Shown in pieces: positions 1,772-46,145 of a stretch of 64,000 nucleotides of DNA. The stretch's first letter is position 1, and each line of letters begins with the position of its first letter. The DNA is from Candidatus Omnitrophota bacterium (GTDB taxonomy: Bacteria; Omnitrophota; Omnitrophia; Omnitrophales; Aquincolibacteriaceae). A model generated the notes under the pieces. It worked only from the letters and a program-made list of their open reading frames with translations. It did not search any database and had not been told where the DNA came from. The DNA is taken from positions 7,128 through 71,127 of the forward strand of contig CAIJDY010000030.1 of NCBI GenBank assembly GCA_903819565.1, read 5' to 3'. The translations under genes were made by a program, and so were the position numbers.

Positions 1772-3436
1772 GTGTTTTCCCCAAAGCTGGCGACATGCCT
1801 TAAAGATTATTCCAAGGAGAAATTTTTCACGGATTGTATCGCGGGATTCATCGTCGGAGTTGTCGCGATCCCTTTGGCGATCGCTTTCGCGATCGCTTCC
1901 GGAGTGTCTCCGGACAAAGGTCTTTTTACGGCGATCATCGCCGGATTCCTCGTTTCCGCGCTGGGCGGGAGCCGGGTGCAGATCGGCGGGCCGACGGGCG
2001 CTTTTGTGGTCATTGTTTACGGTATTGTCCAGAAATACGGGATTGACGGACTGATTCTCGCGACGTTGATGGCGGGTATTATGCTTGTGGTCATGGGGAT
2101 CGCGAAACTCGGAACGGCGATCAAGTTCATGCCACATTCCGTGATCGTCGGGTTCACCAGCGGCATCGCGGTGATCATCTTTTCATCCCAGGTGAAGGAT
2201 TTCCTGGGTCTGAGTATTGAAAAAGTGCCGGCGGAATTTGTGGAAAAGTGGCACATCTTTTTTCAGCATTTGGGCACGGTGAATTACGTTGCGTTGTTGT
2301 TGGGCCTGGCCACGGTCTTGATCATTTCCGTGACTCCCAAATTTTCCAAAAGGGTTCCGGGCGCGCTTGTGGCCCTTATCGTCGTGACCGTTTTCGCGGC
2401 CGTGTTCCGTTTACCCGTCGAGACGATCGGCAGCCGTTTCGGGGAGCTGCCTCACGGCCTGCCCGTGCCGCATTTCCCTCTTCTGAATTTTTTAAAGATC
2501 CGGGAACTTCTTCAGCCGGCCGTGACGATCGCGCTCCTGGGAGCCATCGAGTCCCTGCTGTCCGCCGTAGTCGCGGACGGCATGATCGGGGCTCGACACC
2601 GTCCCAACACCGAGCTGATCGGTCAGGGGATCGCGAACATCGGCTCCGCGCTTTTCGGCGGGATCCCCGCGACGGGAGCGATCGCGAGAACCGTGACCAA
2701 TATTAAGAACGGGGGCAGGACCCCGGTTGCCGGGATCATTCACGCGATCACGGTCCTTCTCATCATGTTATTCTTCGGAGCTTGGGTCAAATTCGTGCCC
2801 CTGGCTTGTCTGGCGGGGATTCTCGTCGTGGTCGCGTACCATATGAGCGAATGGCGGTCTTTCCGCGAGCTGCTCAAAGGCTCCCGCGGCGGAAGGATCG
2901 TCCTGGGCATGACGTTCCTTTTGACGATCTTCGTGGACCTGAACGTTGCCATTGAGATCGGGGTGGTGCTGGCGGCATTCCTCTTCATGAAGCGGATGTC
3001 CGAGATAACGGATGTGAAGGTTTTTGCCCGGGAATATGAAGAAGACGAGAAAATGGAGCGGGGAGAGGATCGGCCCTTATCGGCCTTTTCACTTCCTCCG
3101 AAAGTCGAGGTTTACGAGATCAACGGCCCGCTTTTCTTTGGGGCCGCCAACAGCTTTGATGAGGCCGAGAGAGAGATCTCCGGAAAACGCAAGGTGCGGA
3201 TCCTGCGTTTCCGGGACGTGCCTTTGATCGATTCGACCGGCATGCACGCGCTGAAGGGTTTTTATAATAAGACCAAGCGGGAAGGCATCCGTCTTGTGAT
3301 GACCGGACTCCATGTCCAGCCGCTGAATGAAATGGTCAAATCGGATCTTTACGACCTGGTCGGCGAAGAGAACGTTTTCGCGAGCATGAAAGAGTCGATC
3401 GCGCGGGCGGAAGAATTGTTGAATGAAAAAAAATAG
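1772..3436 (+). CDS. SulP family anion transporter (sulfate/bicarbonate/dicarboxylate permease type) with C-terminal STAS domain
   Basis: 554 aa; GTG start preceded by AGGAGAG RBS; N-terminal region (…AIPLAIAFAIASGVSP…GGPTGAFVV…) matches SulP/BicA/DauA-type permeases; C-terminal soluble ~130 aa with STAS-like segment (NGPLFFGAANSF…IDSTGMHAL). Confidence 0.85.
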   Translation: MFSPKLATCLKDYSKEKFFTDCIAGFIVGVVAIPLAIAFAIASGVSPDKGLFTAIIAGFLVSALGGSRVQIGGPTGAFVVIVYGIVQKYGIDGLILATLMAGIMLVVMGIAKLGTAIKFMPHSVIVGFTSGIAVIIFSSQVKDFLGLSIEKVPAEFVEKWHIFFQHLGTVNYVALLLGLATVLIISVTPKFSKRVPGALVALIVVTVFAAVFRLPVETIGSRFGELPHGLPVPHFPLLNFLKIRELLQPAVTIALLGAIESLLSAVVADGMIGARHRPNTELIGQGIANIGSALFGGIPATGAIARTVTNIKNGGRTPVAGIIHAITVLLIMLFFGAWVKFVPLACLAGILVVVAYHMSEWRSFRELLKGSRGGRIVLGMTFLLTIFVDLNVAIEIGVVLAAFLFMKRMSEITDVKVFAREYEEDEKMERGEDRPLSAFSLPPKVEVYEINGPLFFGAANSFDEAEREISGKRKVRILRFRDVPLIDSTGMHALKGFYNKTKREGIRLVMTGLHVQPLNEMVKSDLYDLVGEENVFASMKESIARAEELLNEKK

Positions 3437-3803
3437 ATCCAGCGGAGTTTCTACGCGGGAAGGCCCCATGAAAAAAATAGATGACATGGTGTTCAAGATC
3501 AAAGCGGACTTTTTAAAAGCCCTGGCGCATCCGGCCCGTTTGCAGGTCATTGAATACCTCAAAAACGGGGAGGCCAGCGTGGGAAAACTTGTCCAGGCGC
3601 TGGGGATTGAACAGTCAAGCCTGTCGCGGCACTTGGCCACGCTGCGGAACCTCGGGGTCCTGGAGGCGCGCCAGGAAAAGACGAATGTTTACTATAACCT
3701 GCAGGATCATGATATTTTCAAGGTGTTGCGGCCGATCGCCGAGCTCCTCCGGAAAAAACTGAAAAGAAGCGAGAAAATGCTGGAGAGCCTCGGCGAAGAA
3801 TAA
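3423..3803 (+). CDS. ArsR/SmtB family HTH transcriptional regulator (no metal-binding Cys motif evident)
   Basis: HTH segment LKALAHPARLQVIEYLKNGEASVGKLVQALGIEQSSLSRHLATLRNLGVL is typical ArsR-family; start may instead be the internal ATG at 3468 (MKKIDDMVF). The 3' end of the SulP gene overlaps this ORF. Confidence 0.75.
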   Translation: MKKNRSSGVSTREGPMKKIDDMVFKIKADFLKALAHPARLQVIEYLKNGEASVGKLVQALGIEQSSLSRHLATLRNLGVLEARQEKTNVYYNLQDHDIFKVLRPIAELLRKKLKRSEKMLESLGEE

Positions 3804-3819
3804 GAAAGCGGGAAACGCC

Positions 3820-4503
3820 ATGCAATTGACTTTCCGTGAGATAGAAAACGCTTTTGAGGTCGAAGAGAAAACGCTTTATCAGTGGCTCAATGAGCGGGGA
3901 ATGCCGGCGGTCAAGGCCAACGATCAGTACTATTTCAACTCGGTCGAGGTCCTGGAATGGGCGCTCAAGTATAAGGTCCGTCTGACGCTCGGGGCCTTGA
4001 AGCTTTGTGAAAAAAACCGTCCCGGTCAGGATATTTTCACCCCGGCCCTCCTTCGCGGAGGCGTTCATTTCGGGATCAAGGGGGGCCGTCGCGAGGAGAT
4101 CTTCCGGGAAGTTTTGAGCCTCCTGCCGCTTCCAGGCCACATTGACCGTTCTTCTTTAATGGAAATGCTGATCTCCCGTGAACAGGCCGGCACGACCGGC
4201 ATCGGGAACGGGATCGCCATCCCTCACGTCAAACACCCCGTGATCTTTGCCGGCCTCGATCCCGTGATCGGGCTTTTTTTTCTTGAAAAACCGGTCGATT
4301 TTGCCGCCCTTGACGGAGAGCGGGTCCATACGCTGTTCGTGATACTGTCCGGCTCTTTTAAAGGACATTTGTCGCTCCTTTCTCGTTTGGCCTTTTGTCT
4401 GCAACGCGAAAGCGTTCAAGCGGTCCTGTGCCGCCGTTCGAATGCCGAAGATATCCTCGCGACGTTCCAGGTTGCGGAAGCAAAAACCGTGAAGACCTCC
4501 TAA
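3820..4503 (+). CDS. Two-domain regulator: N-terminal excisionase/MerR-type HTH (HTH_17-like) fused to PTS EIIA type-2 (EIIA-Ntr/PtsN-like) domain
   Basis: N-term LTFREIENAFEVEEKTLYQWLNERGMPAVKANDQYYFNSVEVLEW resembles HTH_17 DNA-binding domains; C-term REQAGTTGIGNGIAIPH carries the phosphorylatable His signature of PTS_EIIA_2; stop codon immediately abuts the next ATG (4504). Confidence 0.7.
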   Translation: MQLTFREIENAFEVEEKTLYQWLNERGMPAVKANDQYYFNSVEVLEWALKYKVRLTLGALKLCEKNRPGQDIFTPALLRGGVHFGIKGGRREEIFREVLSLLPLPGHIDRSSLMEMLISREQAGTTGIGNGIAIPHVKHPVIFAGLDPVIGLFFLEKPVDFAALDGERVHTLFVILSGSFKGHLSLLSRLAFCLQRESVQAVLCRRSNAEDILATFQVAEAKTVKTS

Positions 4504-6351
4504 ATGGAAACATTCTTCCGCGGGCCCTGGCAGGTCCCTTTCGGCGAACTCTCACTCAAGGTTGATCCCTTGAGCCTCGTTTTTCTTGTCGCGATCACGA
4601 TCCTTGTCCTGTGCGCCGGGGCATACGGTATCGGGTATATGCGTCCGTATCGAGGAAAGAAACCCTTGGGGATCCACGCCTTTTTTTACGGGGTCCTGGC
4701 GTTGGACCTTGTCCTTATCGTTACCGCCAACAACGCGATCCTTTTCCTGGGGGCGTGGGAGCTCATGACCCTTTCCACGTTTTTTTGTATTATTTTCGAT
4801 GACGAAAAATCCTCGGTGCGTAAGGCCGGATTTATTTATTTGATCGCGTCCCATTGCGCGACGTTTTTTCTTTTCCTGATGTTTTTTTTGATGGCCCGCG
4901 CCGCAGGATCGATGGATTTCGATATCATGGCGCGGACGGGTTTTTCGCCGGTCCTTGCGGGGATCGTTTTTCTCCTGGCGCTGGCCGGTTTCGGGGTCAA
5001 GGCGGGATTCCTCCCGGTGCATATTTGGTTGCCGTATGCCCATCCGGCCTCGCCTTCCCATATCTCCGCTTTGATGTCGGGGATCACGATCAAAATGGGG
5101 ATCTACGGGATCTGTCGCGTGCTGTGGATCATGAAAGTGCTGCCGAATTGGTGCGGGTATGTCCTTTTGATGATCGGCGTGTCCTCCGGCATTATGGGGG
5201 TCTTATACGCCCTCGGGCAGCACGAGTTGAAAAAATTGTTGGCCTATCACAGTATTGAAAATATCGGCATCATTGCGCTCGGGTTGGGTGTGGGATTATT
5301 GGGAAGGAGCCATCAGGTCCCCTTCCTCGCGGTTCTCGGATTCGGCGGAGGTCTCTTGCATGTCCTGAACCACTCGCTTTTCAAAAGCCTTCTTTTTTTT
5401 GGAGCGGGTTCCGTCATCCAAAAGACACACACCGGTGAAATGGACCGTCTCGGAGGCCTGGCCAGGACCTTGCCGGTCACAAGCATCCTTTTCCTGGTGG
5501 GGGCACTCTCGATCTGCGGTCTGCCGCTCTTTAACGGGTTCATCAGCGAATTCATTATTTATTTCGGGCTTTTCCAGGGACTTCTCGGTCTTCCAGTGCA
5601 AGGGGGGATCTTTTGTTCGCTGGGGATCCTTGCGCTGGCGCTTATGGGCGCGCTTGCCCTGGCCTGTTTTTGTAAAGTCTACGGGACCGTTTTTTTGGGT
5701 AAGCCCCGTGTGGATATCAATGGCCCTTTAAAGGATCCCGCGGCGCGGCAGGGGATCCGTGAAGGGACATCGCGGTGGATGCTTGTTCCCATGATGATCC
5801 TGGCGGGGCTCTGCGTCTGGATCGGTCTTGTTCCCCGGACAGCGGCGGGGTTGGCTTTCCGCGGAGGGGCCTACCTGACGCATGTGGATCTTGCCGCGGT
5901 CCCGCTGGGGCAGGTTTTCACGCCCTTGACGATGGTCGTCCGTATCGTCCTTCTGTTCCTCGCGCTCGTTTTGGGATTGATCGTGGTCCGGCGGTTTCTT
6001 TTGGGAGGAACGTCCATGCCAGTCCGGGAAACCTGGAGCTGCGGTTTTTCACAGGTCTCATCGAGATTTCAATACACCTCTGCTTCTTTTGCCCGATCGA
6101 TCGTCGATTTGATGAAAAACGTCCTTTTTTTCCGCCGCTACGGGGGACAGGTCGCGGGCGTTTTCCCGGAGAAAACGTCCTTGGTTTCCTCGGTTCACGA
6201 TGTTTCCGAAGAGATGGTTTACAGGCCCGGGTTGGCTTTGTTAAATTATATTTCCGAAAAACTCGGCCATAGCCGTATCCGTTATACGCAGCTCTACCTG
6301 GTCTACATTCTTCTGTTCCTGATATTTTTACTGGTCTGGAAATTAAAATAA
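4504..6351 (+). CDS. Complex I NuoL / hydrogenase-4 HyfB / MnhA-like antiporter-type membrane subunit
   Basis: 615 aa, ~15 predicted TM; conserved antiporter-subunit motif WLPYAHPASPSHISALMSGITIKMG (cf. [25 protein letters not shown] of NuoL/M/N family). Confidence 0.85.
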   Translation: METFFRGPWQVPFGELSLKVDPLSLVFLVAITILVLCAGAYGIGYMRPYRGKKPLGIHAFFYGVLALDLVLIVTANNAILFLGAWELMTLSTFFCIIFDDEKSSVRKAGFIYLIASHCATFFLFLMFFLMARAAGSMDFDIMARTGFSPVLAGIVFLLALAGFGVKAGFLPVHIWLPYAHPASPSHISALMSGITIKMGIYGICRVLWIMKVLPNWCGYVLLMIGVSSGIMGVLYALGQHELKKLLAYHSIENIGIIALGLGVGLLGRSHQVPFLAVLGFGGGLLHVLNHSLFKSLLFFGAGSVIQKTHTGEMDRLGGLARTLPVTSILFLVGALSICGLPLFNGFISEFIIYFGLFQGLLGLPVQGGIFCSLGILALALMGALALACFCKVYGTVFLGKPRVDINGPLKDPAARQGIREGTSRWMLVPMMILAGLCVWIGLVPRTAAGLAFRGGAYLTHVDLAAVPLGQVFTPLTMVVRIVLLFLALVLGLIVVRRFLLGGTSMPVRETWSCGFSQVSSRFQYTSASFARSIVDLMKNVLFFRRYGGQVAGVFPEKTSLVSSVHDVSEEMVYRPGLALLNYISEKLGHSRIRYTQLYLVYILLFLIFLLVWKLK

Positions 6352-6366
6352 AAAATGAGGTCCTGA

Positions 6367-7302
6367 GTGGATTTTATACTGAACAAGGCATTGCCGGTTT
6401 TGTTCCACTGGGGAGGCGTTTGCCTGTTCGCGCCGTTTTTTCTCGGCGTGATCGCCAGGGTGAAGGCATTTTTTTCAGGAAAAACGGGGCCTTCCGTGTT
6501 CCAGCTTTACTTTGATCTTGCGAAGCTCTTTCGCAAGAAGTGTGTCTACAGCGGCACCGCGACATGGATCTTTCGCGCGGCCCCCGCGGTGATCCTGGGG
6601 GTCATGCTGACCCTGTCCCTGATGGTCCCTTTCGGCAGATTCAAAGCGCCGGTGCAATTTTCGGGCGATGTCCTGTTGGCGGTCTATCTTCTGGCTGTAG
6701 GCAGATTTTTCATGATCCTCGCGGCCCTGGACACGGGGTCCAGTTTTGAAGGTATGGGGGCCAGCCGTGAAGCGTTCTTCTCGTGCCTGTCGGAATTGGC
6801 GCTCTTCATGAATTTCATCGTGCTGGCGCTGCTGGCCAAGAGCATTTCGCTCTCCCAGATGATCGGCGCGAATATCCCGATGTCCTGGGGAGGCATGGAA
6901 CCGGTGTTACTTCTGGTCGTGGTGAGTTTTTTCATCGTGCTTCTGGCGGAAAATTGCCGCATTCCGATAGACGATCCGGAGACCCACCTGGAACTGACGA
7001 TGATCCATGAGGTGATGATCCTGGACCACAGCGGCGTTGATCTGGCTTTCATGCTTCACGCCGCGGCAATGAAATTTTTTATTTTTTCCGGGATCCTTGT
7101 TTCCATCATCATCCCGGTGCGGACCGGGAACGCGGTGATGGACATGGCGATCTTTTTCGGCGGGATGCTGGGCCTGGCGGTCCTGGTGGGGGTCGTGGAG
7201 TCCACCACCGCTCGTTTCCGCCTTAACCGGGTAAGGCTCCTGTTGCTGATCTCGTTCGCGCTGGCATTTTTCGGTCTCATCGTAACGTTGTGGAGGGCCT
7301 GA
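6367..7302 (+). CDS. NuoH / HycD / HyfC-like membrane subunit of complex I / formate hydrogenlyase-type modules
   Basis: 311 aa; GTG start with GAGG RBS; N-term …FFLGVIARVKAFFSGKTGPSVFQLYFDLAKLFRKK…ATWIFRAAP… parallels HycD/NuoH conserved N-terminal region. Confidence 0.8.
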   Translation: MDFILNKALPVLFHWGGVCLFAPFFLGVIARVKAFFSGKTGPSVFQLYFDLAKLFRKKCVYSGTATWIFRAAPAVILGVMLTLSLMVPFGRFKAPVQFSGDVLLAVYLLAVGRFFMILAALDTGSSFEGMGASREAFFSCLSELALFMNFIVLALLAKSISLSQMIGANIPMSWGGMEPVLLLVVVSFFIVLLAENCRIPIDDPETHLELTMIHEVMILDHSGVDLAFMLHAAAMKFFIFSGILVSIIIPVRTGNAVMDMAIFFGGMLGLAVLVGVVESTTARFRLNRVRLLLLISFALAFFGLIVTLWRA

Positions 7303-7306
7303 GGGC

Positions 7307-7963
7307 ATGATGTCCTTGATCGATGTGTGTTGTATCCTGGCCGTGTTTCTGGCGCTGACGGTCCTGGCGACGCACCGTATTGTGGGAATGATCAAGCTCT
7401 TTGCGTTGCAATCCTTTTTCCTGAGCCTTGTGCCGCTGTTCCTGCACGCGGAGGCTCTTTCGGGCCGCGACCTCATGCTTTCTCTCGTGACGATGGTGCT
7501 CAAGGCCGCGTTGGTTCCTGCGATCCTCTTCTGGACGATCCGGCACATCTCGATGCGTTCCGAGATCAAACCAATCCTCGGGTTCGGGGCCTCGATCCTT
7601 TGCGGCGCGGCGTTGATCGCGGTCGCTTTCTGGATCTCCTTGTCTTTACGGTTGCCCGGAAAGCTGACCTCGAGCCTGGTCCTGCCGTGCTCGCTGGCGA
7701 CGATGCTGTTAGGTTTTATGACCATGGTGACCCGGACGCGTGCCATGACCCAGGTCTTGGGCTACATGGTGATCGAGAACGGGATTTTTCTTTTCGCGCT
7801 GTCGCTTTTTGACGCCATGCCGCTGCTCATTGAAATGGGCATCCTGCTGGATATTTTTGTCGCGGTCTTTATCATGGCCATCGTGCTCAATCACATCAAC
7901 GAGGAGTTCGAAAGGACCCGGGGCTCCGCGGTGAGCCGGCCTAAATGGGGGGAAAGTCAGTGA
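7307..7963 (+). CDS. Small polytopic membrane subunit, HyfE / NuoK / MnhC-like
   Basis: 218 aa, ~6 TM, sits between NuoH-like and NuoN-like genes as hyfE does in hyf operons; GGAGGG RBS; family call by position and size. Confidence 0.5.
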   Translation: MMSLIDVCCILAVFLALTVLATHRIVGMIKLFALQSFFLSLVPLFLHAEALSGRDLMLSLVTMVLKAALVPAILFWTIRHISMRSEIKPILGFGASILCGAALIAVAFWISLSLRLPGKLTSSLVLPCSLATMLLGFMTMVTRTRAMTQVLGYMVIENGIFLFALSLFDAMPLLIEMGILLDIFVAVFIMAIVLNHINEEFERTRGSAVSRPKWGESQ

Positions 7964-9375
7964 TCCTGTCCTTTTTGATCGCGATCCCGTTTATGGGAGC
8001 CCTGGCCGTATTGCTGCCGGTGAGGCCTCTGTTCAGACGGTGGTTTTTTTGGGCGGTGTCTCTCACGCATGCCTTGATCGTGACTTTTTTCTGGGCGCTG
8101 CGGCCGGCTCCGGAATGGCAGGGGTATCTGGTGCTGGACCCCCTAGGGCTTATCCTGCTCTCGGTGATAAGCCTTCTCTTTCTGGCCGTGTCTTTTTTCA
8201 TGATCGGTTATTTCCAGTATGAACAAAGGGGTAACCGGATATTCACGGCGTGTCTCTTGGCGCTTCTGTCCATGATGACGCTGGTTTCGGTGAGCTATCA
8301 CATGGGGCTTTTGTGGGTGGCAATAGAGACGACGACGCTTTTCAGCGCCCCTTTGATCGCTTTCCATCGTGATTGGAAAAGTCTGGAAGCCACCTGGAAG
8401 TACTTGCTGGTCTGTTCCGTGGGGATCGCTTTGGCGCTGATGGGGACCTTTTTCCTTGCGATCGCGGCTCACGATACGCACACGCTCCTTCTGCCGGCGA
8501 TCCTGAGCGCGGCGCCTTCACTTTCCGTCAATTGGCTGAAACTGAGCGTTATTTTCCTGTTCGTCGGCTACGGTTGCAAGATGGGACTTGCCCCGATGCA
8601 TAGCTGGAAGCCGGAAGCTTACGGCCAGGCGACCGGCATGGTGGTGGTTTTGATGGCCGGGGGCCTGACGCAGTGTTCTTTTTTGGCGCTCATGCGGGTG
8701 AGTCAGATCTGCTACAAGACAGGATTAAGCGATTTTTACGCTTCCATTCTGATCGTGACCGGGATCCTGTCGCTCGTGGTTCCGGCGGTACTTTTGTTGA
8801 GCGAGAAAAACATTAAAAGGTCGTTCGCTTTTTCCTCCGTCGAGCACATGGGGATCCTGGTCCTGGGGCTCGGGTTGGGAGGGCTCGGGATCTTTGGCGC
8901 CTTATTTCATATGGTCAATAACGCCCTGGCAAAGGTGGTGATGTTCCTTACGGCCGGGTCCATCGCCCAGAAATACGGGTCTTCCCGCGTCGAGGACGTG
9001 CGGGGGATCATCCACACCTATCCCATGACGGGCATTTTTTTGATCGTCTCGCTGTTTGCCGGGACGGGGATGTTCCCCTTCGCGACGTTCCATAGCGAAC
9101 TGTTGATACTCAACGCTTCGATCATTTCAAAGCACTACCTGTTGGCAGGGAGCTTCGTCCTGTGTCTGGCCGTTATTTTTATCGGAATGGCCAGGATCGT
9201 TTTGGCGTTCGTCTATGGCCAACCGACGGAACCGGTCCTGGCTAAAAAGGAAAATTTCTTTATGAATACGACCATCGTGGTTGCCGCGGTCGTCTTGCTG
9301 GGAGTTGGCTTGTGGATGCCGGTTTCCTTGAACAGGGCGCTCCACGAAGCGGTGACGTTGATCGGGGCGTCTTAA
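7945..9375 (+). CDS. NuoN/NuoM / HyfF-like antiporter-type membrane subunit
   Basis: 476 aa, ~13 TM, proton-pumping antiporter-like subunit profile; overlaps upstream gene (alternative GTG at 7960 gives GTGA start/stop overlap, suggesting translational coupling). Confidence 0.8.
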   Translation: MGGKSVILSFLIAIPFMGALAVLLPVRPLFRRWFFWAVSLTHALIVTFFWALRPAPEWQGYLVLDPLGLILLSVISLLFLAVSFFMIGYFQYEQRGNRIFTACLLALLSMMTLVSVSYHMGLLWVAIETTTLFSAPLIAFHRDWKSLEATWKYLLVCSVGIALALMGTFFLAIAAHDTHTLLLPAILSAAPSLSVNWLKLSVIFLFVGYGCKMGLAPMHSWKPEAYGQATGMVVVLMAGGLTQCSFLALMRVSQICYKTGLSDFYASILIVTGILSLVVPAVLLLSEKNIKRSFAFSSVEHMGILVLGLGLGGLGIFGALFHMVNNALAKVVMFLTAGSIAQKYGSSRVEDVRGIIHTYPMTGIFLIVSLFAGTGMFPFATFHSELLILNASIISKHYLLAGSFVLCLAVIFIGMARIVLAFVYGQPTEPVLAKKENFFMNTTIVVAAVVLLGVGLWMPVSLNRALHEAVTLIGAS

Positions 9376-9442
9376 TTCTTGTTTAAAAATTTACAGTGAA
9401 TTGGGGCGTAAACAAGGCCCGGTTTGGAACGAATGAGGACTT

Positions 9443-10957
9443 ATGGAATTGTTTAATGGCGGCAACATTTCTTTAAAAGATATCCCGGTTTTAGCGGAAA
9501 AAGAATTCCGCGAAGAAGTGATTCTTCGCTGCCGGGAGGACGCGCGGCTGATGAACTTTTTCGGATGCGCGGAGGACGGGGGCGACGTCCGCTTGATCGT
9601 GATCCTGGGACTCAGCGAAGAGTCTTTGTTGCGGGTGTTTGCGACAAAAATTCCGGCGGGATCTCCCCGTTATCAATCGTTGACCAGGGAGCTACCTCAA
9701 GCGCAATTATTCGAACGCGAGATCGCGGAGCAGTGGGCGGTCACCCCCGAAGGGCACCCTTGGCTTAAACCGGTGAGGTATCACGCGAATTACCGCGGCG
9801 TGCCGGACCTTTGGAAGGATGTCGCGCGGCAGACGATCCCGGGATCTTATCCTTTTTATGCCGTGGGCGGCGAGGAGGTCCATGAAGTGGGTGTGGGGCC
9901 GGTGCATGCCGGTATTATCGAGCCCGGACATTTCCGGTTCCAGTGTCACGGGGAAGAGGTGCTGCATCTGGAGATCCAATTGGGATACCAGCATCGCGGT
10001 ATCGAGCCCCTAATGGGCGTGGGAAAAGATCTGAAACGGGGAGTTCTTTTAAGCGAGTCCATTGCCGGGGACACTTCGATCGGTCATTCTACGGCGTATT
10101 GCGAGGCGATCGAATCGCTGGCGGGTTGCGCGGTTCCGCTGAGGGCGCAGGCCCTCCGCGCGGTGACGCTGGAGCTGGAACGGCTGGCGAATCACGTGGG
10201 CGACCTGGGCGCTTTGGGGATGGATGCCGGTTTTCTGCCGACCAGCGCGTATTTCGGCCGCATGCGTGGGGATTACTTGAATCTATTGCTGGAACTGACG
10301 GGAAACCGTTTTGGGAAGGGACTCTGCCGGCCGGGAGGTGTCCTTTTTGATATGGATACTGCCATGGCCGAAGATTTCTGCCGGAAACTGAAGCGCTATA
10401 AAAAAGAATTCGAAGAAGTAAGCGATCTTTTTTTCACCCGTCCGTCGGTCCTTGCGCGTTTTGAAGGTATCGGGATTCTTCCCCTGAAGACCGCGAAAGA
10501 CCTGGGGGTGGTGGGTCCCGTTGCGCGCGCGAGCCAGTCGGAGCAGGATGTGCGTATCGATTATTCCTCCGGGATATGGCAATTCTATCATGTGCCCATT
10601 TCTCTGGCCGCGACCGGGGACGTTTACGCGCGGGCTCTGGTGCGGCGGCAGGAAGTGATGCGCTCGCTGGAATTCTTGCTGAAACTTTTGCCGTCTTTAC
10701 CCAAAGGGGATATCAGAGCCCCCCTCGGTCCTTTAAAGCCGGAGAGGCTTGCGGTCTCTCTGGTAGAGGGATGGCGCGGCGAGATCATGCATGTCGGTAT
10801 GACCGACGGCCAGGGCGCCTTGTCCCGATACAAGATCAAAGATCCCTCGTTTCACAATTGGTTCGCATTGACCCACGCGATGCGCAATCAGGAAATATCT
10901 GATTTTCCGTTATGCAATAAAAGCTTCAATTTGTCCTATTGCGGGCATGATCTATGA
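9443..10957 (+). CDS. Fused NuoC-NuoD / HycE-like large subunit of a group-4 [NiFe]-hydrogenase-related complex; canonical Ni-Fe Cys ligands apparently absent
   Basis: 504 aa; N-terminal ~120 aa NuoC(30 kDa)-like, remainder NuoD/HycE-like (…HRGIEPLMG…GHSTAYCEAIE…RGDYLN…). Where HycE/EchE have the L1 motif R-x-C-G-I-C-x-x-x-H the sequence reads SIAGDTSIGH; the C-terminal DPCxxCxxR position reads NLSYCGHD (Cys offset, spacing broken). Confidence 0.8.
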   Translation: MELFNGGNISLKDIPVLAEKEFREEVILRCREDARLMNFFGCAEDGGDVRLIVILGLSEESLLRVFATKIPAGSPRYQSLTRELPQAQLFEREIAEQWAVTPEGHPWLKPVRYHANYRGVPDLWKDVARQTIPGSYPFYAVGGEEVHEVGVGPVHAGIIEPGHFRFQCHGEEVLHLEIQLGYQHRGIEPLMGVGKDLKRGVLLSESIAGDTSIGHSTAYCEAIESLAGCAVPLRAQALRAVTLELERLANHVGDLGALGMDAGFLPTSAYFGRMRGDYLNLLLELTGNRFGKGLCRPGGVLFDMDTAMAEDFCRKLKRYKKEFEEVSDLFFTRPSVLARFEGIGILPLKTAKDLGVVGPVARASQSEQDVRIDYSSGIWQFYHVPISLAATGDVYARALVRRQEVMRSLEFLLKLLPSLPKGDIRAPLGPLKPERLAVSLVEGWRGEIMHVGMTDGQGALSRYKIKDPSFHNWFALTHAMRNQEISDFPLCNKSFNLSYCGHDL

Positions 10958-10988
10958 AGCGCTTTGACCGTAGAAGCGGGGAGCCTTT

Positions 10989-11669
10989 ATGCTGAATATT
11001 TTAATGGAGCGTTTAAAACAGGGCCGCCGGACTTTATCCTTTCCCAAGGGGAAGCCCCCGGTCCTGCCGGCGCGTTATCGGGGCCGCCCCATCGTCGCGG
11101 GCCTGAAAGACGGTGTGGACTTGGGGAAGATCACCTTTATCCCCGACAGCGGCATTCAACATTCTAATGATTTTCGTATGGCGGCTTCTCGCCGGGAAGA
11201 TCTCGTTCTTAAGGGTGACGACGCGCACGCTTTGGCACATGCGTTGAATAAGAAGATCTTGGAGATGTTCGGCCGTTCTCTGAAGCTGCGGCAGGTTTCA
11301 GCGGGCGGGTGCAATGCCTGCGAGGCAGACATCAATGTCCTGAATACGCCCGTCTTTGATCTCAGCCGTTTCGGTATTCAATTCGTCGCGTCGCCGCGCC
11401 ATGCCGACGGGATCGTCGTCACGGGTCCCATTTCGCGCAATATGAAAGAAGCGCTTCTGAAAACTCACGAAGCCACACCGGACCCCAAGATCGTTATTGC
11501 GGTCGGTGCTTGCGCGATCTCCGGAGGTATTTTTTCCGAAAGTCCGGAATCTTCCAAGGGGCTGGACACCCTTCTTCCCGTAGACCTTTATATCCCCGGC
11601 TGTCCTCCGCACCCCTTGACCATTCTTGACGGGCTCCTGAGATTGATGGGAAGGCTCAGAAAAGAATGA
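10989..11669 (+). CDS. NuoB / HycG / EchC-like small subunit with intact [4Fe-4S] (N2-type) Cys set
   Basis: 226 aa; …RSLKLRQVSAGGCNACEAD… (CxxC), …AVGACAISGG…, …YIPGCPPHP… correspond to the four Cys of HycG/NuoB-type subunits. Confidence 0.8.
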   Translation: MLNILMERLKQGRRTLSFPKGKPPVLPARYRGRPIVAGLKDGVDLGKITFIPDSGIQHSNDFRMAASRREDLVLKGDDAHALAHALNKKILEMFGRSLKLRQVSAGGCNACEADINVLNTPVFDLSRFGIQFVASPRHADGIVVTGPISRNMKEALLKTHEATPDPKIVIAVGACAISGGIFSESPESSKGLDTLLPVDLYIPGCPPHPLTILDGLLRLMGRLRKE

Positions 11670-11782
11670 ATGGAGGTTTCACCCCGATTCATGTCTTCAG
11701 GAGTTAATTCTTCGCGGTATTTTTCTCGTTTTAGGGAAGGTCTCCACGAAATAGAAAACCAGACCCTGCTTCGTCCGGAGTT

Positions 11783-12259
11783 TTAATGAGAAGCCTGTTC
11801 GCCCGCGTCCGGAGTTTCCGGGGGAGCGACCTGGAGGGGGTTCAGATTGGCGTGGAAGGCCCATTTCCAGCCCTCCGGAGTCTTGATCCAGCCGCTGAGG
11901 CGCATCGCCGCCCGCGTGGGAAGGTCCAGGGGGCCGATGTTCTCTTCGGTCATGACCCGGTAGCTGACAAGAATGAGGGAATCGGTTTGCGTGGTTTTAA
12001 TATAGCTGAGCTCGTACTGGTCAATGTTCAGTTCCTTCAGAAGCGCCATTTCTTCCGCTCCGTTGCGGGCGATATCCTCATGGACGGACTGGAACTCCGG
12101 GGCCATATCTTTTTCGATCTGGGCCCAATTGCCTTCATGAACGTTCTTCCAGAGTTCACGGACAAGCGTTTCGCCCTGGGACATCTCTTCAGCGAAAGTC
12201 GGTGGAACGGAACCCAGTAAAAAGAAAACGAAACAAAGAACGACGAGTTTGTTTCTCAT
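11783..12259 (-). CDS. Secreted NTF2-like / SnoaL-like fold protein (unknown function)
   Basis: Start taken at internal MRNKLVVLCFVFFLLGSVPPTFA (Sec signal peptide); ~135-aa mature domain with W/E-rich pattern typical of NTF2-like (DUF4440/SnoaL-like) proteins; family call tentative. Confidence 0.45.
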   Translation of the reverse strand: MRNKLVVLCFVFFLLGSVPPTFAEEMSQGETLVRELWKNVHEGNWAQIEKDMAPEFQSVHEDIARNGAEEMALLKELNIDQYELSYIKTTQTDSLILVSYRVMTEENIGPLDLPTRAAMRLSGWIKTPEGWKWAFHANLNPLQVAPPETPDAGEQASH

Positions 12260-12298
12260 GGCGTCTCCTTCCATGCGGATCTTCATACCGTCTCAGGG

Positions 12299-12769
12299 TT
12301 AGTCGGACTCTTTCCAGATATCGCCGCGCCGTCCGATCTTAACAACGTCGTTTATCTTGATCTTCAGGATGGCGAATTTCTCCGAGATCTCCACTTCGAA
12401 ATGTTCGTGTTTTTTTCCCGTCCGGACCGCTTCGATCACGCGGTCGGCCGAGAGCTTGACGACTTTTTCATCCCATTCTCTCAACATGGCATCGTAGCTT
12501 TTGCCCCGCTCGATCACTTTTGCGGTCCCGTTCAGGCGGTAGGCCTCCAGAGCGTCCTGTTCCATAAAAGAAACGGAGACGAGGGGGTTCTCTTTGATGT
12601 TGACGACCGTCTGGCCCATGACGTGATCGATCAAATAGAGGGAATCCCTCTTGGCGTGGAGAAAAAGCTTCGGGGCGGAATTCGGCCGGCCGTCACGGGT
12701 GGCGGTGCCGACCGAGACGAACTTTCTTTTTCCGAGTAATTCCTGGATTTTTTCCGTGATCTTGGGCAT
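12299..12769 (-). CDS. Pyridoxamine 5'-phosphate oxidase-like FMN-binding protein (general stress protein 26-like)
   Basis: 156 aa; …FVSVGTATRDGRPNSAPKLFL…LYLIDHVMGQTVVNIKENPLVSVSF… pattern typical of PNPOx split-barrel family. Confidence 0.6.
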   Translation of the reverse strand: MPKITEKIQELLGKRKFVSVGTATRDGRPNSAPKLFLHAKRDSLYLIDHVMGQTVVNIKENPLVSVSFMEQDALEAYRLNGTAKVIERGKSYDAMLREWDEKVVKLSADRVIEAVRTGKKHEHFEVEISEKFAILKIKINDVVKIGRRGDIWKESD

Positions 12770-12942
12770 AAAAGTCCTTGAAGGTCCCCATTATACTCCC
12801 AAAACGGCAAAAGTTGTGCCAGTTTCGTGGTCTCTACTCAAATCAGGGCAGAGCGCAATAAGAATTGGATATTGCGGCAGACCTCAAACCTGCGCGAGCC
12901 AAACTGCTTGCCTCTATAGGTGAAATCCATTATAAGAAGGGC

Positions 12943-14094
12943 ATGCCCCGAGGATTGTATATTCATATTCCGTTCTGCAAGACCCGCTGCCACTATTGCA
13001 ATTTCATTTCGTTCGGAGAGACTACGCCGGAATTCCGGGAACGGTTCTTTAAGGCCTTATTTGAAGAGGTCCGTGAGGCCGGAAAAAAATATGGACAGCT
13101 GTTTTTCGACACGCTGTATCTCGGGGGCGGGACGCCGTCGCTGTTAAACGCTCAAGAGATGACCGGGCTTTTCGGGGAGGTCCGGAAAAATTTCGAAATT
13201 TCACAAGACGCCGAGATCACCTGCGAATGGAATCCGGGGGACGGGGAGGAAGAAAAATTCTCCGTTCTCAGAGCTCTGGGAGTCAACCGCCTCAGCCTCG
13301 GCGTCCAGTCTTTTCAGGACGGTCTATTGTCCCAGCTCGGGCGGAGGCATACCGTTCATGATACTTTGCGGACGCTCGAGAAGATCCAAAAAGCGGGCAT
13401 CGGCAATATCAGTTTTGACCTGATGCTTCGGATCCCGGGGCAGAAGCTCGCGGATTTTCAGGAGTCGCTTGAACGGTGCGTCGCATGCGGCGCCGCGCAG
13501 GTTTCGCTTTATGATTTGGAGGTCCATAAGGCCACGGTGTTCGGCGGGTTGCGGGAAAAAGGAGCGCTGGCGCTTCCGGATGAAGAGGAGCACGCGGGGA
13601 TGTATCAGGCGGCATGTGAAGGTCTGGTCCGCGCCGGCTACGAGCATTACGAGATCTCCAATTTCGCGAGGCCCGGCTTTGCGTCCCGGCACAATCTCAT
13701 CTATTGGCACAACCAGGAGTACCTGGGGCTGGGTCCCGGAGCTTTTTCCTATCTCGGCGGGATCCGTTCCCAATTCGCGGGCGAGGGGATCCGGTATCTT
13801 GAAAAGTGCGAGGCCGGGGACTGGCGGAACGATCAGGAAGACGTTCTCTCTGAAGCGGAACGGGAAACGGAGACTTTCGCGATGGGACTCCGTTTGGCAG
13901 AGGGCGTGAAGCTCCGGGATTTTCCGGGCATTTATCCGGGTCTTCGGGAACGCGTCGAGACCTTGTTGCAGAAAGGACTCCTTGAGCTCGCGGATGAAGA
14001 ATTACGTTTAACGGCCTGGGGGCGGTTCCTTTCGGAGGACATTTTCGGTTTTCTACTTCAAAAGGATAGGGGTTCCGAAGCGTGTTTTTTATGA
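12943..14094 (+). CDS. hemW: Radical SAM family heme chaperone HemW / HemN-like oxygen-independent coproporphyrinogen oxidase homolog
   Basis: LYIHIPFCKTRCHYCNF (CxxxCxxC radical-SAM motif directly after conserved LYIHIPFC); start moved to ATG at 12943 (AAGAAGGG RBS) rather than the TTG at 12865. Confidence 0.75.
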   Translation: MPRGLYIHIPFCKTRCHYCNFISFGETTPEFRERFFKALFEEVREAGKKYGQLFFDTLYLGGGTPSLLNAQEMTGLFGEVRKNFEISQDAEITCEWNPGDGEEEKFSVLRALGVNRLSLGVQSFQDGLLSQLGRRHTVHDTLRTLEKIQKAGIGNISFDLMLRIPGQKLADFQESLERCVACGAAQVSLYDLEVHKATVFGGLREKGALALPDEEEHAGMYQAACEGLVRAGYEHYEISNFARPGFASRHNLIYWHNQEYLGLGPGAFSYLGGIRSQFAGEGIRYLEKCEAGDWRNDQEDVLSEAERETETFAMGLRLAEGVKLRDFPGIYPGLRERVETLLQKGLLELADEELRLTAWGRFLSEDIFGFLLQKDRGSEACFL

Positions 14095-14151
14095 TATATT
14101 ATTCCCCAGCTTGATCTGCGAAACTCACCTTGCAACAAAGGAGAAATCAAC

Positions 14152-14904
14152 ATGAGAACCTTTTTCAGAATCTGTATCGTTGCGGTTTTATTTTCTTTGG
14201 CAATCACGCCTTACGCTCTCGCCGAAGAAGCCAAGACTTCCGAAAGGTCCGAAGGCGCGACGGTTCAGGTAACTCCCGTGGCGGCGACGATTGTCGACGC
14301 GTCGGCCCAGGCCCGGGTCATCGTCAGCGCCCCGGTACCGGCGACCGTGGTCTCGCCCGTGGTTGAAAAGACGACGCTGGATAATCTCCAAGCGGCGTTC
14401 AACGGTGAAAGCAACGCCCATGCCCGTTATTTGGCGTTCGCGAAGAAAGCGGACGAAGAAGGGTACGGGAAGGTCGCCAATCTTTTCCGCGCGGCCGCTC
14501 GCGCTGAGCAGGTTCATTTTGAAAATCACACCAAGGTCATCAAGGAGCTCGGGGGAACCCCGACCGCCAAGATCGAAACCCCGGTCGTGAAAACCACGGC
14601 TGAGAACCTTAAAGCCGCTTTTGACGGGGAAACTTACGAGACGACCGTGATGTATCCGGAGTTTCTCGCGAAGGCCCAGAAGGACAAGGTCAAAGGCGCG
14701 ATAGATACTTTCGAGGATGCCGGGCGGGCCGAGGCTGTTCACGCCGCTCTCTATAAAAAAGCCATGCAGGATTTGCCGGCATGGAAGGGCAAGGGGAAGG
14801 GGTTTTTTGTTTGCCCGGTTTGCGGGAATGTGGTCGAGAAAACGGATTTTCTAAGATGCCCGATTTGTGATACGAGCAAAAAGCTGTTCATAACGGTTAA
14901 GTAA
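14152..14904 (+). CDS. Rubrerythrin (ferritin-like diiron domain + C-terminal rubredoxin-like CxxC…CxxC) with N-terminal Sec-type signal peptide and T/V/A/P-rich linker
   Basis: MRTFFRICIVAVLFSLAITPYALA signal peptide; LQAAFNGESNAHARY…E…H ferritin-like E/H motifs twice; C-term CPVCGNV…CPICD rubredoxin-like Zn/Fe ribbon. Confidence 0.8.
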   Translation: MRTFFRICIVAVLFSLAITPYALAEEAKTSERSEGATVQVTPVAATIVDASAQARVIVSAPVPATVVSPVVEKTTLDNLQAAFNGESNAHARYLAFAKKADEEGYGKVANLFRAAARAEQVHFENHTKVIKELGGTPTAKIETPVVKTTAENLKAAFDGETYETTVMYPEFLAKAQKDKVKGAIDTFEDAGRAEAVHAALYKKAMQDLPAWKGKGKGFFVCPVCGNVVEKTDFLRCPICDTSKKLFITVK

Positions 14905-21902: not shown

Positions 21903-23912
21903 ATGCGCCGTTACTTGGATGACGCGTTTTTGAACAAAGAGGAGGCCATGGCATTGCAGTTCAAGGGAGCGTTTTTTTCGCGAGCGATGGAGAAGGGGCT
22001 GTTTTTTATTGCTCTTTTGTTCGCCTTTGCGATCGGTGTCCCGTGGATGCCTGATTTTTCCATTACGGGACTGGATCCGTCCTGGAGATTGTCGCTCCAC
22101 TATTTCTTCGAGCACGGGTACGTTTTTGGAAAAGACATCATTTTCACCTACGGCCCTTACGGTTTTATCACCACCTGCACTTATTATCCCGCCACCTATC
22201 AGATCTTGTTCTTCGCATATTTCTTTTTTGTGGCGGTCTACGCAGTCGTGAGCTGGAACCTTTTCAAGAGGGCTATCAGGAGCCCTTGGGGCGTTTTTTT
22301 TGCGGTACTTGGGGCGTCCCTTCTTTGGGCGCCGTTCCCGGAAAATTTTTTTTCGGGAGACACCTTTTTTTATTCCTGCGGGATTTTGTTTTTTACGTCC
22401 TATCTCGCGGAAATTGACGAGCCTTACCGGCCGAGAAATTTTTTTCTTGTTGGAATCCTGGCGGCTTCCAGCCTGATGAAATACAGTTTTTTTATTTGGG
22501 CGCTCGGTCTTCTCTTCTTCGTCAGTCTGGACGGGATCCTTTTCAGGAAGAAAGTCCCGTTCTTATTCCTTTGGTATTGGGGGGTTCTCGGGGGCCTTTG
22601 GGTCCTAGCGAAACAGCCGTTAGCGGGTTTGGGCGCTTTTCTTTTGAACGGGGCCCGGATGGCGCAATATTACGGTTCGGCGATGAGCTTTGTTTTGACC
22701 TCCTACCAGCTTAAGCTTGTTATTTATCTTGTCTTTACACTGTTTTTTTTGGCGGTTTTTTATGTCGCCCAGCGGCAGCGGATGGGCCGGCGCGCCCTTT
22801 TACCGTCGCTCACTCTGGCGGCCATGGGGTTCTTGATTTTTCGGGCCTCTTTTACGCGTCCCGATCACTACGTTCTTGCCATGAGTTATAGCGCGATTTT
22901 GGCGATCTATTTGATCCCTTTCATCGCGGAAGTCCTCAAATCGAAGGTTTGGAAAGTTTTTCTTATCATGTTGTTGATGGCAGCGCTGGGCCTGGGTTAT
23001 TCCGCCTGCCTGAAGCCTTTGGCGCCCTCATTCTCCAAGCTCGCCGGCAGGATCGGGAACTCCATCTTGAGAATACCTTACTGCACGTTCCGGGAGTCAC
23101 GTTTTTTGCCACGGCCCAAAGATTTGCAGGCGCGCTATGAAAATATCCGGGGAGCCATCCGGTGGACGGATCCGATGCCGCAGCTTTTCGGGACCGTGGA
23201 CGCCTATCCCTACGACAGCACCGGGTTGATCGCCTGGAACCTTTCGTACAAACCCCGGCCGGTTTTTCAAAGTTATGCCGCGTACACTCCCTTTTTGTCC
23301 CGGAAAAATGCGGACCATTTTAAAAGTTCCAACGCGCCGGAATTTCTTATTTTCGGACCGAACGTTACGGAAGACGGCAAGCCCGTCGATGCCCGTTATC
23401 CGACGCTGGACGACAGTCTGTCTTTGCCCGAGATCCTGAGCCGTTACGATTTACTGGCGACTCTTCGTGGGAAAGCCCTGTTGAAAAAAACCCCCGTCCC
23501 GCGGCCTTACGCACTTCCGTTGATCGAAAAAGTAACGGCGGAGTTCGGGAAACCCATTCCCGTTCCCGGCTTTGACAAAAACCCCGTCTGGGTCGAAATT
23601 GACATTGAGCCGACATGGTGGGGCAGGATCTTTGAATTTCTCGGCAGGGCGGGGAGGGTTTTGATCACTGTCCGGGCTTTGAACGGCACCGCGCATGCCT
23701 ACGAACTGCCTCCGGTGATGGCCCGAACGGGATTTTTACTTTCTCCTCTATTGGACGACGCTGGCGGGTTTATCGATTTTTGGACGCGTCATTTTGAAAA
23801 CTCGGGATTGCTTCAAAAGGAAGTGGTGGGATTGACTCTTGAGGTGCCATCCTCCTACCGAGGGTTCTTTGCTTCAAGGTTCCTGGTCCGTTTTTTCGAA
23901 TATAAGACCTGA
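21903..23912 (+). CDS. Large polytopic membrane protein with C-terminal soluble domain (paralog A; GT-C-like architecture, unknown family)
   Basis: 669 aa; ~11 TM in first ~400 aa then ~270-aa hydrophilic domain; ~70% identical to downstream paralog over long stretches (…SLHYFFEHGYVFGKDIIFTYGPYGF…). Confidence 0.55.
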   Translation: MRRYLDDAFLNKEEAMALQFKGAFFSRAMEKGLFFIALLFAFAIGVPWMPDFSITGLDPSWRLSLHYFFEHGYVFGKDIIFTYGPYGFITTCTYYPATYQILFFAYFFFVAVYAVVSWNLFKRAIRSPWGVFFAVLGASLLWAPFPENFFSGDTFFYSCGILFFTSYLAEIDEPYRPRNFFLVGILAASSLMKYSFFIWALGLLFFVSLDGILFRKKVPFLFLWYWGVLGGLWVLAKQPLAGLGAFLLNGARMAQYYGSAMSFVLTSYQLKLVIYLVFTLFFLAVFYVAQRQRMGRRALLPSLTLAAMGFLIFRASFTRPDHYVLAMSYSAILAIYLIPFIAEVLKSKVWKVFLIMLLMAALGLGYSACLKPLAPSFSKLAGRIGNSILRIPYCTFRESRFLPRPKDLQARYENIRGAIRWTDPMPQLFGTVDAYPYDSTGLIAWNLSYKPRPVFQSYAAYTPFLSRKNADHFKSSNAPEFLIFGPNVTEDGKPVDARYPTLDDSLSLPEILSRYDLLATLRGKALLKKTPVPRPYALPLIEKVTAEFGKPIPVPGFDKNPVWVEIDIEPTWWGRIFEFLGRAGRVLITVRALNGTAHAYELPPVMARTGFLLSPLLDDAGGFIDFWTRHFENSGLLQKEVVGLTLEVPSSYRGFFASRFLVRFFEYKT

Positions 23913-45947: not shown

Positions 45948-46145
45948 TTAGGCCACCTTCTTGGCTTCGACCACGTGGCCTCCTAAGGCTTTGCAGGCAT
46001 CGACGGTCTGGACCCATTTCGTTTTACCCTTGACGCTACATTCCACCGGCTTGGGAGCTGTCGGGGTCGGCTGGTTGATCAGTGAGGCATAAGCGGCAGT
46101 TCCCGCAATCGATAACATGACCGCAACCAAAAGTATTTTTTTCAT
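45948..46145 (-). CDS. Small secreted two-Cys protein (65 aa), unknown function
   Basis: MKKILLVAVMLSIAGTAAYA signal peptide; mature ~45 aa with two Cys. Confidence 0.4.
   Translation of the reverse strand: MKKILLVAVMLSIAGTAAYASLINQPTPTAPKPVECSVKGKTKWVQTVDACKALGGHVVEAKKVA

Follow-up and report, generated by a model that had tools for sequence, protein, structure and literature searches.

The window analysed here is a stretch of 64 kb from a Candidatus Omnitrophota genome, and these 64 kb are the part of the genome that was open to inspection; those close homologues of its genes that bear a name also come from Candidatus Omnitrophota. Between positions 4504 and 11669 it carries six subunit genes on the plus strand which, judged by their sequences, are an energy-converting-hydrogenase-related (Ehr) operon of this bacterium. 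Ehr complexes have been described as related to group 4 hydrogenases, as lacking the ligands of the NiFe site and as having no known function (PMC7894505, PMC10284858, PMC13194489, PMC7304191), and the need for an electron donor has been raised in the literature on them. Pfam and NCBIfam searches bear out the six genes as they had been described in an earlier reading of the letters alone, which we call the sequence-only reading. The membrane subunits come first: EhrA (4504..6351, 615 amino acids (aa)), antiporter-like and of the HyfB/HycC/NuoL type (NCBIfam hydrogenase 4 subunit B, E 3e-159); EhrB (6367..7302, 311 aa), NuoH/HycD/HyfC-like (Pfam NADHdh, E 3e-32); EhrC (7307..7963, 218 aa), HyfE-like (NCBIfam hydrogenase 4 membrane subunit, E 5e-25); and EhrD (7945..9375, 476 aa), antiporter-like and of the HyfF/NuoN-M type (NCBIfam hydrogenase 4 subunit F, E 1e-80). 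They are followed by EhrL (9443..10957, 504 aa), a large subunit in which NuoC and NuoD/HycE-like parts are fused (Complex1_30kDa and Complex1_49kDa domains), and by EhrS (10989..11669, 226 aa), in which a vestigial NuoI/HycF domain is fused to a NuoB/HycG domain. A gene for a helix-turn-helix (HTH)/EIIA protein precedes EhrA, with genes for a SulP transporter and an ArsR regulator further upstream, so that the full order reads SulP-ArsR-HTH/EIIA-EhrA-B-C-D-L-S, all of it co-directional on the plus strand.

The sequence-only reading had stated that this operon lacks any electron-input subunit. To our knowledge, no characterised member of the superfamily does without a NuoI-type two-cluster subunit as the obligatory last leg of its electron wire. 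As far as relay clusters and a 2x[4Fe-4S] ferredoxin are concerned the statement holds; it fails for the protein itself, because a NuoI/HycF-derived domain makes up residues 1-95 of EhrS. The NuoB-like protein starts with about 95 extra residues (10989-11273). When these were compared alone with the PDB, E. coli NuoI was the sole match, in two collinear pieces that flank its ferredoxin core: EhrS 13-42 corresponds to NuoI 28-56 ('LPPRYRGR') and EhrS 51-78 to NuoI 109-136. A profile of 28 homologues also matches HycF, at residues 1-33 and 85-111, and the top four NCBIfam models for the domain are NuoI/HycF models. With E values of about 0.01-0.05, these PDB and NCBIfam matches are weak. What settled the matter was a phmmer search against 1.84 billion representatives; most of its 124 matches are N-termini of proteins that run into a NuoB domain. 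They match in two stretches, and the approximately 30 extra residues between the stretches bear two ferredoxin-type cysteine motifs. Two Fer4+Oxidored_q6 fusion proteins (Pfam) were found inside the same six-gene operon, and EhrS is 58-63% identical overall to fused relatives of this kind that have both cysteine motifs. It is because of these two-stretch matches to Fer4-NuoB fusions that we regard the N-terminal domain as homologous to NuoI/HycF.

Alignment with the Fe-S-bearing relatives P0146, P0152 and P0153 locates the loss precisely. EhrS 1-37 (10989..11099, '...RTLSFPKGKPPVLPARYRGRPIV') represents the N-terminal amphipathic helix and long loop of NuoI/HycF and aligns with NuoI 28-56 and HycF 1-33. 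The collapsed ferredoxin core follows as EhrS 38-50 (11100..11138, 'AGLKDGVDLGKITF'). A deletion of 30 aa after K40 has taken the whole first cysteine motif, and one of 7 aa after F50 has taken most of the second, with the leftover cysteine positions substituted; the window protein reads 'DLGKITF-IPDSGI' where its relatives read 'DLGRCLFCxxCxxxCPxxAI'. EhrS 51-95 (11139..11273, 'IPDSGIQHSNDFRMAASRREDL...') comprises the post-core segment, homologous to NuoI 109-136 and HycF 85-111, and a linker. All eight cluster cysteines are lost and the NuoI-like domain contains zero cysteines. On this comparison EhrS 1-95 is a NuoI/HycF-derived module that is present but cluster-less and, as a cysteine-free part joined to the front of the NuoB-like gene, it escaped the sequence-only reading. 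That reading had itself named an overlooked NuoI/HycF-like reading frame as the finding that would speak against it; such an element does exist here, but without cysteines.

The remnant has not drifted freely. The ratio of non-synonymous to synonymous substitutions (dN/dS) is about 0.14 for the whole N-domain, compared with 0.04-0.06 for the NuoB domain, at synonymous sites that are near saturation, and this indicates that the helix, loop and linker are under purifying selection. The N-terminal amphipathic helix and the long loop have been called universal in the complex I superfamily in a paper on the structure of formate hydrogenlyase (FHL; PMC9474812). A confident AlphaFold2 model of EhrS, with a predicted local distance difference test score (pLDDT) of 86, was obtained from an alignment of 150 sequences that included Geobacteraceae homologues and has a helix at residues 2-11; an alignment of 120 close homologues gave a pLDDT of 50 and was unusable. 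Beyond this helix the model tells little of the remnant, as Foldseek aligned only the NuoB domain (top matches 7z0s_G and 6cfw_J). Fusions of NuoC with NuoD and of NuoI with NuoB are a published feature of Ehr (PMC6349859, Supplementary Note 4); the second of them is found in all Ehr operons of the Geobacter EhrABCDLS type. For a cluster-less EhrS we found no description in a literature search, which was limited and leaves its absence from the literature unproven.

The remainder of EhrS, residues 96-226 (11274..11669), is a NuoB/HycG domain with the hydrogenase-type pattern CxxC...C...C (Pfam Oxidored_q6, E 1e-31). Its best PDB match is MbhJ (E 1.8e-38), and HycG is also matched (E 1.6e-34). 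The four cysteines of the proximal cluster, C108 (codon at 11310-11312), C111 (11319-11321), C175 (11511-11513) and C205 (11601-11603), all on the plus strand, are invariant in 120 and in 150 aligned homologues. The peripheral arm can therefore hold only a single [4Fe-4S] cluster, the proximal one that corresponds to N2/G1.

A relay encoded elsewhere in the window was not found. The motif CxxCxxCxxxC is absent from all six frames across the 64 kb, and a looser scan gave only one CxxCxxC, in a stop-free non-genic segment of 46 aa (46087-46107). The gaps that the sequence-only reading had suggested as hiding places (9376-9442 and 11670-11782) contain no cysteine-rich open reading frame (ORF), the small ORFs there (9396-9476 and 11670-11786) having 1 and 0 cysteines, respectively, and no cysteine motif. 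Among the 30 largest neighbouring ORFs there were no domains of NuoEFG, formate dehydrogenase, pyruvate:ferredoxin oxidoreductase or ferredoxin, in agreement with the earlier statement on NuoEFG and formate dehydrogenase. A ferredoxin-type gene or motif was likewise absent within about 10 kb of eight ehr loci of the Omnitrophota type. The redox-type proteins nearest to the operon are a PNPOx-like protein, a HemN-like radical SAM enzyme and a rubrerythrin. The gene after EhrS is convergent, as had been noted: it encodes a DUF4440 protein on the minus strand (11783-12286).

The large subunit that partners the proximal cluster has neither NiFe cysteines nor the quinone-binding tyrosine. EhrL is closest to HycE and MbhL, while MbsL is a far weaker match (E 8.5e-20). 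In the translation 'ESIAGDTSIGH' takes the place of RxCGxCxxxH, and the C-terminus reads 'ISDFPLCNKSFNLSYCGHDL'. In the alignment with HycE (7z0s_E, E 2.7e-51), the two N-terminal cysteine positions are taken by Ala and Thr in EhrL and the two C-terminal positions by Ser and Gly; both NiFe ligand motifs, L1 (RxCGxCxxxH) and L2 (DPCxxCxxH/R), are absent. The roles of residues at the quinone site of complex I (Nqo4 Y87) and at N2 are established knowledge, and an alignment with Nqo4 places Gly at the Tyr87 position of EhrL, so that the quinone tyrosine of complex I is missing as well. The membrane arm has kept the residues expected of a pump. EhrA has HycC as its best PDB match (7z0s_C, E 1.2e-60), and its alignment shows the Glu of transmembrane helix (TM) 5 and the Lys of TM7, TM8 and TM12; in the sequence of EhrD the motifs with Glu and Lys can be seen, the channel Glu/Lys thus being kept in both antiporter-like subunits. 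EhrB carries the motif AENCRIPIDDPETHLEL.

How the relay fares among relatives can be seen from two scans. A scan with one genome per species gave 80 loci that share this operon; they belong to Geobacteraceae (Geomonas limicola, Geobacter sp.), Planctomycetota, Verrucomicrobiota, Acidobacteriota, Desulfobacterota, Riflebacteria and others. Both cysteine motifs are present in about 60 of the approximately 75 species-level loci. Six loci (L011, L015, L045, L046, L053, L067), which we call type X, have only the Cys-Pro of motif 1 and the CxxCxxC of motif 2. No motif at all is left in 9 of the approximately 75, all of the Omnitrophota type and the window among them. In a neighbour-joining tree of EhrL the Omnitrophota forms make up one clade with a two-cluster sister (L037), and type X emerges at three or more points of the tree. 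Starting from a cluster-less representative, a scan of metagenomes gave a further 80 loci, GC-rich, from soil and without taxonomy, which form a sister lineage. In this lineage 35 loci (within L107-L164), our type Y, have only the CxxxCxxC of motif 1 and the Cys-Pro of motif 2, and at least 12 loci have one orphan cysteine or none. The soil lineage has thus lost its clusters independently.

Types X and Y occur in different lineages, and each holds exactly the four ligands of one ferredoxin cluster. In the clostridial-type 2x[4Fe-4S] fold one motif supplies three of the cysteines that bind a cluster and the other motif supplies the fourth, and for this reason the two types must retain different clusters. 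Since only one of the two clusters can neighbour that of NuoB, the relay should be interrupted in at least one of the types; the argument rests only on X and Y keeping different clusters. We also considered that type X might reflect stepwise trimming of the relay from its distal end, and dropped the idea, as the soil lineage has the complementary type Y. Throughout all forms, with both clusters, a single one or none, the cysteines of the NuoB domain are kept. More than 120 homologues at 72-100% identity share the architecture of the window proteins. The two EhrL motifs are nearly invariant over the 80 loci and their many phyla, as 'E(T/S)xAGDT(T/S)xGH' (at about 10055-10087 in the window) and as the C-terminus 'ISDFPLCNKSFNLSYCG(H/F)DL' (10897-10957). 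Taken together, these comparisons show that the outer relay is dispensable in several lineages and that the core is strongly constrained.

Some variation within the family was also seen. Ala stands in place of the last EhrL cysteine in 46 of 47 soil loci and also in several from Omnitrophota. The two cysteines of this region vary in a complementary way, 'PLNNKSF' forms keeping 'SYCG' and 'SYAG' forms keeping 'PLCNKSF', which hints at a ligand or metal site. One protein of 592 aa (P0243) runs from an EhrL-like part into an EhrS-like N-domain in a single ORF and is either a fusion of large and small subunit or an assembly frameshift. In an Omnitrophota genome (GCA_015233675.1, locus L003) an extra, partial EhrB/C/D-like set (1-2623) lies immediately 5' of the complete ehr operon (2845-10684), and the polyphosphate genes Ppx and PPK1 follow immediately downstream; in L001 a PPK2 gene lies upstream. 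Membrane or EIIA genes are inverted or displaced relative to ehrL-ehrS in L029, L036, L046, L048, L060 and L083 (some Planctomycetota, Geobacteraceae and Desulfobacterota), the operon there being split or rearranged.

Two of the genes upstream accompany the operon, the EIIA-like one in many phyla and the SulP one in relay-less lineages. The gene directly before EhrA (3820..4503, plus strand, 227 aa; Pfam, NCBIfam) encodes an HTH_17 domain and a PTS_EIIA_2 domain, is PtsN-like and abuts EhrA with zero gap. Its EIIA part gives E 4.8e-21 with PTS_EIIA_2 and 68 bits with the PtsN model TIGR01419, against a cut-off of 138.7; the HTH_17 domain is extra. The phospho-histidine motif is kept as GNGIAIPH. 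An HTH+EIIA(Ntr)-like gene adjoins ehr in 50 of 85 loci from many phyla, in 43 of them with GxGxAxPH, and outside Omnitrophota the homologues are 28-44% identical to that of the window (loci including L001, L006, L008, L009 and L011-L083; soil loci L092-L157). It looks like an unrecognised seventh conserved member, or a regulator, of the Ehr system. Further upstream lie a SulP/SLC26 anion transporter with a STAS domain (1772..3436, plus strand, 554 aa) and, overlapping its gene end, an ArsR/SmtB-family regulator (3423..3803, plus strand, 126 aa), both assigned by Pfam and NCBIfam; SulP is possibly the first gene of the transcription unit. The nearest solved structures for SulP are SLC26Dg (5da0) and BicA (6ki1). 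A SulP gene stands upstream of ehr in three of six Omnitrophota loci, among them L006 (737-2398) and L008 (1319-2965), and directly upstream in all seven relay-less soil loci with enough flank (L092-L095 and L104-L106, at about 90-1750). With 57-62% identity the soil homologues resemble the window SulP more closely than the Ehr subunits resemble theirs. SulP is absent from six of six type-Y loci and divergent in L157. The linkage of SulP and ehr may reflect a shared function or a joint transfer of the whole block. ArsR also occurs upstream in L001 and L006; a role as BigR-like thiol or persulfide sensor was ruled out, as the protein is cysteine-free. No description of a linkage of EIIA or SulP to ehr was found in the literature search, with the same limit on what its silence proves.

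Downstream of the operon (11783-14904) the DUF4440 protein and the PNPOx-like flavoprotein, both on the minus strand, are followed by the HemN-like radical SAM enzyme and rubrerythrin, a set typical of an anaerobe; none of these genes is kept beside ehr in relatives. An Rfam scan found no riboswitch. It placed a type I hammerhead at 12155-12198 on the minus strand, inside the DUF4440 gene, at 21 bits compared with a gathering score of 34 (E 0.45), which is probably a chance match. Four further large ORFs of the window (21903-23912, 24028-25989, 29721-31796 and 33894-38261) encode 669, 653, 691 and 1455 aa; the three that were scanned have no Pfam match, the 1455-aa ORF lying outside the scan.

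What, then, might an Ehr complex without its outer relay be doing? The sequence-only reading had left two alternatives, a donor supplied in trans or a module that does not transfer electrons in the usual sense, and this choice still stands. We infer, without having demonstrated it, that the second alternative is to be preferred, because complementary single-cluster forms and repeated full losses occur while the NuoB domain, the pocket of the large subunit and the membrane arm are conserved. More specifically, with a probability of roughly 0.4, the core job of Ehr would need no steady supply of electrons through a NuoI-type wire. The outer relay is dispensable in several lineages, having been worn down more than once and in complementary patterns, whereas the NuoB domain, the pocket motifs of EhrL and the proton-channel residues were retained. 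In this model Ehr would most likely be a gradient-coupled or regulated ion translocator, or would tie an ion gradient to some non-redox event in the EhrL pocket. The proximal cluster would serve a structural purpose or sense the redox state, the EIIA(Ntr)-like protein would be the regulator, and the co-encoded SulP anion transporter would be the likely physiological partner in the relay-less lineages. A more far-reaching form of this idea, which we consider doubtful, is that Ehr complexes are not electron-transfer enzymes at their core at all and that the EhrL pocket performs or gates a non-redox reaction or a transport step tied to the ion gradient. In 'E(T/S)xAGDTxxGH' and '...CNKSFNLSY(C/A)G(H/F)DL-COOH' the pocket contains Asp, His and Cys, and what it performs or gates might for example be the handling of anions or inorganic carbon together with the SulP/BicA-like transporter, by analogy with DAB and NDH-1MS/CupA. 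Control would be of the PTS-Ntr type (PTS, phosphotransferase system) through the EIIA-like partner, and the relay of typical Ehr complexes would amount to an accessory sensor of the redox state, given up in several lineages.

Several points weigh against a machine without steady electron supply. There is no experiment or biochemistry on any Ehr complex. Conservation of the four proximal cysteines and of the EhrL pocket is no weaker than in two-cluster relatives, and continued redox chemistry with a directly docking donor fits this equally well. The intact two-cluster relay in most phyla argues that electron transfer is ancestral and still relevant there. We know of no complex-I-type proton-pumping arm that works without a driving reaction, except for Mrp and DAB, which have no NuoB/NuoD. 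The EIIA-like protein, bearing an HTH domain, may be a mere transcription factor, and the SulP linkage may be due to descent and not to function. The trees, moreover, were built by neighbour joining and bear no support values, and the sorting into cysteine classes relied on pattern matching.

The directly docking donor leads to the strongest rival, a redox-driven pump with a shortened wire. A soluble carrier encoded elsewhere, a ferredoxin or flavodoxin, would reduce the exposed proximal [4Fe-4S] cluster directly, the excised core leaving the space for docking, and an acceptor reduced at the EhrL pocket would drive ion translocation. This is possible, and the invariance of the four NuoB cysteines and of the EhrL pocket motifs, unchanged with respect to two-cluster relatives, is what one would expect from it; so is the fact that the deletions take almost exactly the ferredoxin core and leave the flanking scaffold. 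The single-cluster forms of type X would suit a stepwise shortening, and ferredoxin-dependent Ech and Mbh are known to work without a dedicated input module. We give it less credit than a machine independent of a steady electron supply, as types X and Y have a full-length core with complementary clusters, so that in one of the two classes the site next to the proximal cluster is occupied by cluster-less protein and neither relay nor direct docking would work. No soluble carrier is known to reduce an N2-type cluster directly, Ala has taken the place of the last EhrL cysteine almost throughout the soil lineage as well as in several Omnitrophota loci, and the eight loci inspected hold no candidate donor within about 10 kb.

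The trans option of the sequence-only reading can also be taken more literally. A separate 2x[4Fe-4S] protein encoded elsewhere might bind as a stable subunit and restore the three-cluster chain, NuoI then being split and not lost. Small ferredoxin genes are often unlinked, and the 64 kb inspected are a fraction of the genome; yet the NuoI scaffold is still covalently attached and under purifying selection, and consequently a full NuoI paralogue could not fit in its place. As no such gene is kept near the eight Omnitrophota-type loci or in the window, and independent lineages would each need the same split, we think this unlikely. That the operon is a decaying, non-functional relic seems to us very improbable. 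Relic status has been proposed for the Ehr of Geobacter KN400 (PMC13194489), cofactor-binding residues have disappeared and none of the Ehr complexes has a known function, but the six ORFs are intact here and in relatives, the architecture is kept by the more than 120 homologues mentioned above, dN/dS is 0.04-0.15, and channel residues and pocket motifs are conserved.

Ehr is widespread, occurring in Geobacter, Nitrospira, Planctomycetota, Verrucomicrobiota and candidate phyla; it has been without a known function since 2005, and it has been discussed as a link between membrane hydrogenases and complex I. The relatives assembled here amount to a natural deletion series, with both clusters, either single one or none, in which the proximal cluster, the pocket and the pump residues are kept throughout, and this shows that the wire is dispensable for the job of Ehr, whichever that is. 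The series provides ready-made variants for biochemistry, so that the question of Ehr function becomes experimentally approachable. The EIIA-like regulator and the SulP transporter point to a physiology that can be tested, and a peripheral arm with one cluster would be a minimal system for studies of coupling in the complex I superfamily.

Compared with complex I/NDH-1, the window operon has the homologous core of NuoB, C, D, H and L/M/N and has retained the N-terminal helix and loop of NuoI. It differs in having no NuoA/J/K set (NuoA and NuoJ homologues were not found in Pfam and NCBIfam scans), no NuoEFG and no NuoI clusters, and in the CxxC of its NuoB domain where complex I has a tandem CC. 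The FHL systems of E. coli (Hyd-3, 7Z0S; Hyd-4, Hyf) supply the closest solved structures for EhrL (HycE), for EhrA (HycC) and, together with MbhJ, for the C-terminal domain of EhrS (HycG), and their membrane subunits are likewise of the HyfB/C/E/F type. FHL has a NiFe site, a separate HycF with two clusters, HycB with four clusters and the FdhF input module, whereas the window has no NiFe cysteines, no HycB and no FdhF, and its HycF is the cluster-less fused remnant. By the same token it lacks two marks of group 4 [NiFe]-hydrogenases, the L1/L2 motifs and a NuoI/HycF-type subunit with 2x[4Fe-4S]. Within the superfamily, Mbh and Mbs/Mbx of Pyrococcus furiosus (6CFW, 6U8Y) depend on ferredoxin and have no large input module; Mbs/Mbx resembles Ehr in its incomplete NiFe site, and MbhJ is the best PDB match of the NuoB domain. 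Both have a separate two-cluster NuoI-type subunit (MbhN/MbsN) and Mrp-type Na+ subunits, which are absent here. With Mrp and DAB (DabAB) the likeness, on the reading that we prefer, is one of functional analogy only, in that complex-I-type antiporter-like subunits work without an electron relay; those systems have no NuoB/NuoD/NuoH module and no Fe-S cluster, whereas the window operon has NuoB- and NuoD-like genes and no MrpE/F/G-like or DabA-like genes. DAB and cyanobacterial systems are linked to the transport of inorganic carbon or anions.

The closest system is the Ehr complex (EhrABCDLS) of Geobacter sulfurreducens and its relatives, as secondary sources report it after Coppi (2005) and Marreiros et al. 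(2013). HyfB-, HyfC-, HyfE- and HyfF-like genes, a NuoCD-like gene without NiFe cysteines and a NuoI+NuoB fusion follow one another in the same order, and an upstream EIIA-like gene is common to both. EhrL and EhrS are 47-54% identical to those of Geomonas/Geobacter loci (L034, L085), with identical EhrL motifs. Geobacteraceae differ in having two EhrA genes and not one, and the upstream SulP and ArsR genes were not found there. In EhrS they have kept both CxxCxxCxxxCP motifs (Pfam Fer4 + Oxidored_q6), of which the window protein has none. The window operon thus shares with Ehr a large subunit without the NiFe CxxC, the proximal-cluster cysteines, the Hyf-type membrane set and the NuoC-NuoD and NuoI-NuoB fusions, and departs from it in the two [4Fe-4S] motifs of the NuoI-like domain. 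As this domain is cysteine-free, the operon is, by its sequence, placed within the Ehr family as a variant and not as a typical member.

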